A stretch of 64,000 bases of DNA. Origin: Candidatus Heimdallarchaeum endolithica (GTDB lineage: Archaea; Asgardarchaeota; Heimdallarchaeia; Heimdallarchaeales; Heimdallarchaeaceae). Made by a program: the position numbers and the translations under genes. The DNA lies in NCBI GenBank assembly GCA_021513715.1, contig CP084167.1, positions 2,816,001-2,880,000 on the forward strand, in the 5' to 3' direction. Positions 13,749-13,928 of this stretch are shown here, piece after piece; position 1 is the stretch's first letter, and every line of letters starts with the position of its first letter. The notes beneath the pieces are model-generated. The model had not been told where the DNA came from and ran no database searches. It saw only the letters and a list, made by a program, of their open reading frames with translations.

Positions 13749-13928
13749 TCTAATGGCAATTTCAGGTTCGGAATGAGTCTGAGTGTTGCCCTGCCGCTAT
13801 GGCCGCGACGAATCGCAGCGAATGGCCGTTCCCAAGTGCTCTCGCAACTTAGTACAGGACCACACGCTGGCAGGCTTAACTTTCCCGAGTTTCTGGAACA
13901 CATCCAGATCCTTTCTGCTGCCATTAGA
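13749..13928 (-). rRNA. rrf: 5S rRNA gene, circularly permuted (core 13761-13881, enclosed by leader/trailer stem)
   Basis: Minus strand reads AGTTAAGCCTGCCAGCG...GTACT...GGGAA...CGCTGCGA (canonical 3' half), then TTCG, then TCGCGGCCATAGCGGCAGGGCAACACTCAGACTCATTCCGAACCTGAA (canonical 5' half). Helices I-V all pair. 10-bp inverted repeat at 13749-13758 / 13919-13928. Confidence 0.92.

Follow-up and report, generated by a model that had tools for sequence, protein, structure and literature searches.

Why does Candidatus Heimdallarchaeum seem to have no gene for 5S rRNA, a universal ribosomal RNA? In two closed Ca. Heimdallarchaeum genomes, 5S rRNA genes were not predictable (PMC8813620). The window analysed here is a stretch of 64,000 nucleotides from Ca. 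Heimdallarchaeum endolithica (GenBank assembly GCA_021513715.1, contig CP084167.1, positions 2,816,001 to 2,880,000 of the forward strand), and positions below are counted from its first letter unless prefixed C1 or with a locus label. On its minus strand, positions 13761-13881 are a circularly permuted 5S rRNA gene, in which the 3′ half is encoded before the 5′ half and the permutation point is the AA bulge of helix III. The swapped halves account for the failed annotation of 5S in Ca. Heimdallarchaeum, and raise the further question of how a continuous 5S rRNA could be made from such a gene.

A circularly permuted gene for 5S rRNA

Searches of the window with Rfam give no 5S match that reaches the gathering score, which is 38 bits for RF00001. 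At a loose threshold, RF00001 matches in two pieces of swapped order, one at 13810-13934 (31 bits), which is the 3′ part and lies upstream, and one at 13760-13784 (13.6 bits), which is the loop C part. A split, sub-threshold match of this kind is expected because the gene is permuted. The remaining Rfam matches in the region fall far under their own cut-offs, and an 85-codon open reading frame that spans the whole gene (13730-13987, minus strand) corresponds to no protein on record and was set aside as a shadow frame.

The identity of the RNA is clear from its fold, a three-way structure of five helices, I-V, all of which covary. Pairing of the fold reaches 90.9% over 23 permuted genes drawn from six families, where slid controls reach 30-47%; of its 34 pairs, 27 show two-sided changes. 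Helix I is formed by 13819-13813 paired with 13808-13802 and is closed by a UUCG cap; a UNCG cap links the native ends in 27 of 29 family loci, with no spacer or processing signal between them. The strands of helix III within the 5′ half are UCAG (13782-13779, 5′ strand) and CUGA (13765-13762, 3′ strand). The precursor folds with z = -3.75, its long leader-trailer stem closing the fold. When the predicted 121-nt ring is folded without constraints it adopts the canonical 5S shape, with the loop C, loop E and helix III bulge motifs all in canonical spacing, and when read from the tetraloop it aligns without gaps over the junction to four canonical Asgard 5S genes. The genome is closed and encodes both uL18 and uL5; its two 5S genes are both permuted, and it has no 5S gene in canonical order. 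Judged from its sequence, the permuted locus appears to be the working 5S gene, with a product predicted to bind the ribosome together with uL5 and uL18. The features of the locus are collected in the table.

Table. Features of the permuted 5S locus, in the order of transcription.
Feature	Positions	Strand	Evidence
TATA-like box TTTTTAAA, likely promoter of the 5S precursor	13968-13975	-	read by eye, inferred
Outer processing stem, 5′ arm	13919-13928	-	10/10 pairs with 13758-13749
Step-1 leader side: GCAG 13918-13915 and bulge AAA 13914-13912, predicted cut 13913/13912	13912-13918	-	CAG invariant; pairs with trailer CUGR
Intron hairpin, 6-bp core 13908-13903 / 13897-13892; after step 1 would serve as the second BHB's helix on the intron side	13888-13912	-	87.9% paired
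Step-2 leader side: CGGG 13887-13884 and bulge AAA 13883-13881, predicted cut 13882/13881	13881-13887	-	CRGG/CCUG pairing
3′ half of 5S rRNA (helix III end, helix II 3′ strand, helices IV and V, helix I 3′ strand)	13813-13881	-	RF00001 piece 13810-13934; covariation of the 5S fold
UUCG tetraloop linking the native 3′ and 5′ ends over helix I	13809-13812	-	folding; UNCG in 27/29 family loci
5′ half of 5S rRNA (helix I 5′ strand, helix II, helix III 5′ strand, loop C, helix III 3′ strand)	13761-13808	-	RF00001 piece 13760-13784; alignment with canonical Asgard 5S
Trailer side of both signals: CUGA and AAU (step 1, predicted cut 13760/13759), CCUG and AAA (step 2, predicted cut 13761/13760)	13759-13766	-	spacing of the trailer bulge
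Outer processing stem, 3′ arm	13749-13758	-	folding; pairing with 13919-13928
U-rich tract, likely terminator	13732-13740	-	read from sequence, inferred

The neighbourhood of the gene, as read from translations, includes two small Rab/Ras-like GTPase genes (14573-15094 and 15686-16213, both on the minus strand), a TnpB-like (IS200/IS605) open reading frame (17334-18680, plus strand) and a transposase-like fragment (9615-9917, minus strand). Small Rab/Ras-like GTPases are typical of Asgard archaea.

Nested splicing signals and the proposed pathway

The leader and trailer carry two nested bulge-helix-bulge (BHB) signals. The earlier note on this DNA had described one of them, a CCUG/CGGG helix with an AAA bulge on each strand, as a relaxed BHB of the linear precursor. 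The elements it listed are all present on the minus strand: on the trailer, CCUG 13766-13763, AAA 13762-13760 and on to UUGCC, which ends at 13755; in the leader, CGGG and AAA, followed by GUU to 13878, together with CAG-AAA at 13917-13912 and the two hairpin arms. A cut after the second bulge base does give 13761-13881, or 121 nt, with a junction that is non-contiguous, being absent from the whole genome. This end product and its junction have gained comparative support, since the identical register is regular in a second copy of the gene and in other families. The note had also offered, as an option, a route in two steps by way of an outer 3-bp CAG/CUG helix and an intron of about 31 nt. That route is now the better supported one, with its first register corrected: the outer helix belongs to a BHB with a 4-bp central helix, GCAG/CUGA, with bulges AAA and AAU (13761-13759 for the latter), and by this register the intron is 32 nt.

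We propose the following pathway. The transcript would run leader, 3′ half, UUCG, 5′ half, trailer. In the first step the leader and trailer would pair as the 10-bp stem and the GCAG/CUGA 4-bp helix, with two 3-nt bulges; a two-subunit EndA would cut both bulges and RtcB would ligate the ends, giving a 153-nt ring (13760-13912). This join would set CCUG-AAA directly 5′ of the leader hairpin, and in doing so would form a new BHB opposite CGGG-AAA. In the second step, a further cut and join would drop 32 nt. The resulting 121-nt ring, in which helix III is normal and has its AA bulge, would stay closed and act as the ribosomal 5S rRNA. We put the full pathway, with two ordered rounds and a ring that is retained in the ribosome, at a probability of roughly 55%; ligation of the helix III junction, taken by itself, we regard as likely, at about three chances in four.

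The same design recurs in all 31 full-length loci of the family, in the order 10-bp stem, NCAG, 3-nt bulge, hairpin, CRGG, A(A/U)A and 5S, so that both signals, and with them the register of helix and AAA on which the earlier note relied, are kept in orthologues. The predicted excision is 31-33 nt in every one of these loci (32 here) and the final ring 120-122 nt (121 here).

For the outer signal, a 4-bp central helix and 3-nt bulges are flanked by the 10-bp stem, which is 94.8% paired in the family and has two-sided changes in nine of its 10 pairs. The NCAG/CUGR pairing is complete in 20 of 29 aligned loci and three of four in the other nine. Its first pair is purine-purine in eight of the 29, among them the window locus, where a G.A mismatch at the first pair of GCAG/CUGA leaves three pairs of four; CCAG/CUGG occurs once. 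The spacing is exact: a trailer bulge of 3 nt gives 5.77 of 6 adjacent pairs over the family loci, compared with 1.6-3.4 for other sizes. The outer stem and central helix together arise by chance at a frequency of 0.00017 per random genomic 60-mer, and in folding of the precursor the step-1 register is better than the direct register by 4.2 kcal/mol and better than native helix III by 1.9 kcal/mol. The signal has no inner-side helix, and is thus a relaxed motif of the hBH type. Two alternative first registers (CAGA/CCUG with an A.C pair, and the 3-bp CAG/CUG) were rejected on two grounds: the intron helix then falls out of register, with 2.6 and 3.6 of 8 pairs compared with 6.2, and the first outer pair is broken in 13 of 29 loci.

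The register of the inner signal, once step 1 has taken place, would combine a 4-bp helix and two 3-nt bulges with a helix on the intron side that is in register. The CRGG/CCUG helix is 99% paired in the family, R being only A or G, opposite U, and the intron hairpin shows two-sided changes in five of 10 pairs. A second 4-bp helix with two purines would be met by chance at a frequency of 0.002 per random site. The flanks are less regular. The first two pairs of the intron-side helix are frequently mismatched in the family, at the window locus the intron side has just two pairs and then a 2x2 loop, and the helix on the mature-RNA side is weak. When the 153-nt ring is folded without constraints, a third, mispaired state is favoured by about 2.5 kcal/mol, the second BHB and native helix III being equal in folding energy. 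The trailer strand is also under the constraint of helix III. Covariation of the central helices, which had been suggested as a check for CCUG/CGGG, is seen solely in comparisons between families; inside the family the pairing is maintained but the central helices barely vary, and hence do not covary.

The genome carries a second permuted 5S copy (C1:2471138-2471266), which adjoins tRNA-Ser(GCU) and differs from the window copy at several 5S positions. In this genome and in the sister species, the second copy has a regular one-step BHB in the register of CCUG/CGGG, with an identical junction. The CAG signal has been lost in both species, and 5 bp join the trailer directly to the end of the same leader hairpin, one of them being G-U in one species and G-C in the other. 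This signal does not enclose the homologous hairpin, which therefore cannot be kept. The second copy would thus arrive at the same product in a single step, implying that the hairpin is dispensable in the mature RNA. In other genera with two permuted copies, both copies are nested.

The enzymes that the pathway would call for are encoded in the genome. Two proteins of the EndA family are encoded, at C1:1233-1234 kb and C1:1962 kb. One shows the catalytic motifs (Tyr, His and Lys) and scores above the endA cut-off, and the other has no such motifs; such a catalytic and structural pair would fit the heterotetrameric class of EndA, the class with the most relaxed BHB recognition (PMC4731332). RtcB is encoded at C1:1674208-1677159, in a frame of 984 codons interrupted, from about residue 93 on, by a long insertion that begins with Cys-Leu and ends with Ser-Asn-Cys. 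The insertion looks like an intein, in which case the RtcB ligase would itself need protein splicing. Close to the 5S locus, a tRNA-His(GUG) gene (13527-13617, minus strand) has a 16-nt intron at 37/38 (13565-13580) that was not called by ARAGORN; its BHB is regular, with CUGU paired to GCAG and with GGG and AAA as the bulges.

The permuted layout across Asgard genomes

How widespread is the permuted gene? A covariance model built in permuted order matches 79 of 83 genomes of the class, including all 14 of high quality, and RF00001 scores over its cut-off in just four of the 83. Of these four matches, one covers half of a permuted gene, and three are on short contigs, in genomes that also contain the permuted gene, and may be contaminants. 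The permuted layout was found in 88 of the 151 genomes searched across the phylum; all such counts are of related genomes, which are non-independent samples. A further 20 loci, from families beyond the training set, were read directly and are all permuted. Sampled genomes of three families (f11, f15 and f17; L161-L164) have instead a 5S gene in canonical order, implying that the permutation has been gained or reversed inside the phylum.

BHB signals accompany the permuted genes outside this family as well. In the best register for each of 49 other loci, the central helix has all four pairs in 40 loci and at least three in all 49, through 20 different pairings, and an outer helix abuts the BHB in 47. 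When leaders are swapped among these loci, complete central-helix pairing falls to 27%. The BHB stems covary between families, and the predicted ligation rebuilds helix III: with the join defined as a cut after the second bulge base followed by ligation, the canonical AA bulge is restored unambiguously in 28 of the 49 loci, and in nine more as one of two tied registers. In family f3 the join gives a 3-nt AUA bulge in helix III in 10 of 10 loci (L042-L046, L131, L135-L137, L140). The register type of the earlier note, in which the loop C residue C and three helix III bases face a leader whose bulge has A as its last base, next to GUU, makes up a regular, single BHB in families f8, f10, f12, f13, f19, f21 and f22, besides the second copy in this genome. 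A second nested arrangement occurs in family f18, where neither of the two loci has a sensible one-step product. In its nested version CGUG/CACG appears twice, with a 9-bp outer stem and a 123-nt product, and the repeated signal has changed together with its partner.

Variation among individual loci was also noted. One locus carries a tandem pair of differing permuted 5S genes, about 35 nt apart and each with its own BHB stem (L081:1451-1730, G077), and at another the start of a permuted 5S recurs about 45 nt past the trailer, which suggests a tandem or partial second copy (L045:415-455, G032). Two loci of family f14 have extra inserts, L159 one of about 20 nt in loop C and L160 one of about 30 nt at the helix I cap, and the helix I hairpins are lengthened in f13, f16 and f20. 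In one of two copies in another genome (L040, G002:C43), several substitutions break helix III and both central helices; this copy is possibly decaying.

Alternative outcomes and known parallels

The strongest competing explanation, although we consider it unlikely, is that EndA cuts the precursor but the mature 5S rRNA is linear, either nicked because the helix III ends are never joined, or derived from a ring that is reopened, for example at the helix I loop; permuted tRNAs and the 23S rRNA of Pyrococcus can be compared. A permuted, linear 5S rRNA is known from brown-algal mitochondria (PMC4267664), permuted tRNA circles are intermediates (PMC3978253), and few sites of bacterial 5S are less obstructed than the helix III bulge (PMC7812874). 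The absence of the junction from metagenome and viral contigs would also agree with a linear product. Patterns for the final and intermediate junctions, and a ring-specific pattern across lineages, gave no matches in metagenome contigs, and the junction gave none in viral contigs; these null results carry little weight because the collections are mainly DNA assemblies and were searched without a positive control. (A lone viral-contig match to the genomic layout, L165, was discounted as a chance match.) Against a linear product, three different registers across the phylum all yield the identical 2-nt bulge after joining, as expected if the join matters. Moreover, a trailer that had not been ligated in step 1 would retain an extra A, the UNCG cap offers neither spacer nor processing signal, and RtcB is present.

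A slim chance attaches to a single step, in which CCUG/CGGG is cut as a relaxed motif in the linear precursor to give the 121-nt ring, the outer CAG being a by-product or backup. This is the order of events first put forward in the earlier note, and it has some appeal: the helix is a perfect 4 bp with two AAA bulges, some loci have three adjacent outer pairs, two-subunit EndA is the most relaxed class (PMC4731332), and the end product would equal that of two rounds. The outer helix that this register requires is, however, 43% paired in the family, no better than shuffled sequences (mean 44%), with one of eight pairs at the window locus, and forcing the register carries the cost of 4.2 kcal/mol relative to step 1 given above. 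The invariant CAG and its exact 3-nt bulge spacing beside the stem would also be left unexplained.

Slimmer still is the chance that step 1 acts alone, so that the mature RNA is the 153-nt ring and the hairpin is kept as an expansion segment at the helix III bulge. Bacterial 5S rRNAs with hairpin expansions at positions 52-53 are known (PMC7812874), the hairpin is conserved and covarying, and native helix III equals the second BHB in folding energy. An expansion segment would nevertheless have no need of the CRGG-A(A/U)A that is complementary to CCUG in essentially every locus; in addition, the hairpin of the second copy is outside its one-step signal, and in f18 the repeated signal changes along with its CGUG/CACG partner. 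Finally, it is very improbable that there is no splicing, with a linear transcript bearing a leader-trailer expansion on helix III or trimmed by other nucleases: the outer stem by itself could close the permuted fold, but helix III would face competition from the copies of its partner in the leader, and BHB geometry is retained in nearly all 49 loci from many families.

We favour, at somewhat better than even odds, a 5S rRNA that in Heimdallarchaeia and most sampled Asgard lineages would be a closed ring, existing only after tRNA-type splicing of a permuted gene, and that in the present family would be made by two rounds in a fixed order, with the second splice site created by the first round.

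The closest parallel is the SRP RNA of Thermoproteus tenax, which has a permuted gene, a leader-trailer BHB, a heterotetrameric EndA and a circular mature RNA (Plagens et al. 2015, PMC4731332). Here too the order is permuted, a BHB is found at the new ends, and EndA and RtcB are encoded; in both cases a universal RNA seemed to be missing since its gene is permuted, and ligation restores, or here would restore, a conserved element. The differences are that circularity has been demonstrated for the T. tenax RNA whereas it is predicted here, that the RNA is 5S rRNA, that the layout extends over most of a phylum rather than one genus, and that two nested rounds are proposed in this family.

Permuted tRNA genes, known from Cyanidioschyzon merolae, green algae and Thermofilum pendens, also have a BHB at the precursor ends and give a circular intermediate (PMC3978253). 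They resemble the permuted 5S genes in this and in having the 3′ half first. In their circles, however, a spacer is removed to leave a linear tRNA, whereas in the permuted 5S a UNCG tetraloop joins the native ends; and their intron and junction BHBs are not nested, whereas the second BHB of the 5S would form at the junction itself. Nesting is known from archaeal pre-tRNA introns, where, in the work of Sugahara (2007) and Tocchini-Valentini (2009) as summarised in PMC3978253, the last BHB arises only after the first splice. In the cases summarised there all steps remove introns from a linear tRNA, whereas step 1 of the 5S pathway would circularise an rRNA.

In brown-algal mitochondria the 5S rRNA is permuted, its helix I is replaced by a closed hairpin, and it is missed by RF00001 (Valach et al. 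2014, PMC4267664). The closed helix I and the RF00001 miss are shared with the Asgard genes, but the mitochondrial RNA has its ends at the three-way junction and stays permuted and linear, with no BHB or splicing. Circular and permuted forms of archaeal 23S rRNA have been described (PMC12918454, PMC7758197), and rRNA circles made at a BHB, in this case of 23S, can occur in ribosomes (PMC12918454); 5S processing is said in the same paper not to use the BHB-circle route. Circular 5S molecules of Halobacterium and Sulfolobus have variable ends and were interpreted as degradation products (PMC12558985). Both these and the 23S circles come from genes of normal order, unlike the permuted Asgard 5S. 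Our literature search, mostly outside subscription journals, found no report of a permuted archaeal 5S gene. The permuted layout is real and conserved; its novelty is that maturation of the Thermoproteus SRP type, combined with nesting in the style of tRNA introns, would be applied to a ribosomal RNA.

What would this mean for the Asgard archaea? The permuted-order model offers a route to annotating their missing 5S genes, and the nested signal makes definite predictions, namely a 153-nt intermediate, a 32-nt intron and a 121-nt ring. A canonical gene is present in some Asgard families, so that gain and loss of the permutation can be mapped. If the mechanism is true, making a universal ribosomal RNA requires EndA and RtcB in the class thought to be closest to eukaryotes, and that RNA exists there as a closed ring. 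As for the 5S rRNA of the host in eukaryogenesis, either the eukaryote line branched from a lineage with the normal gene, or it un-permuted the gene.
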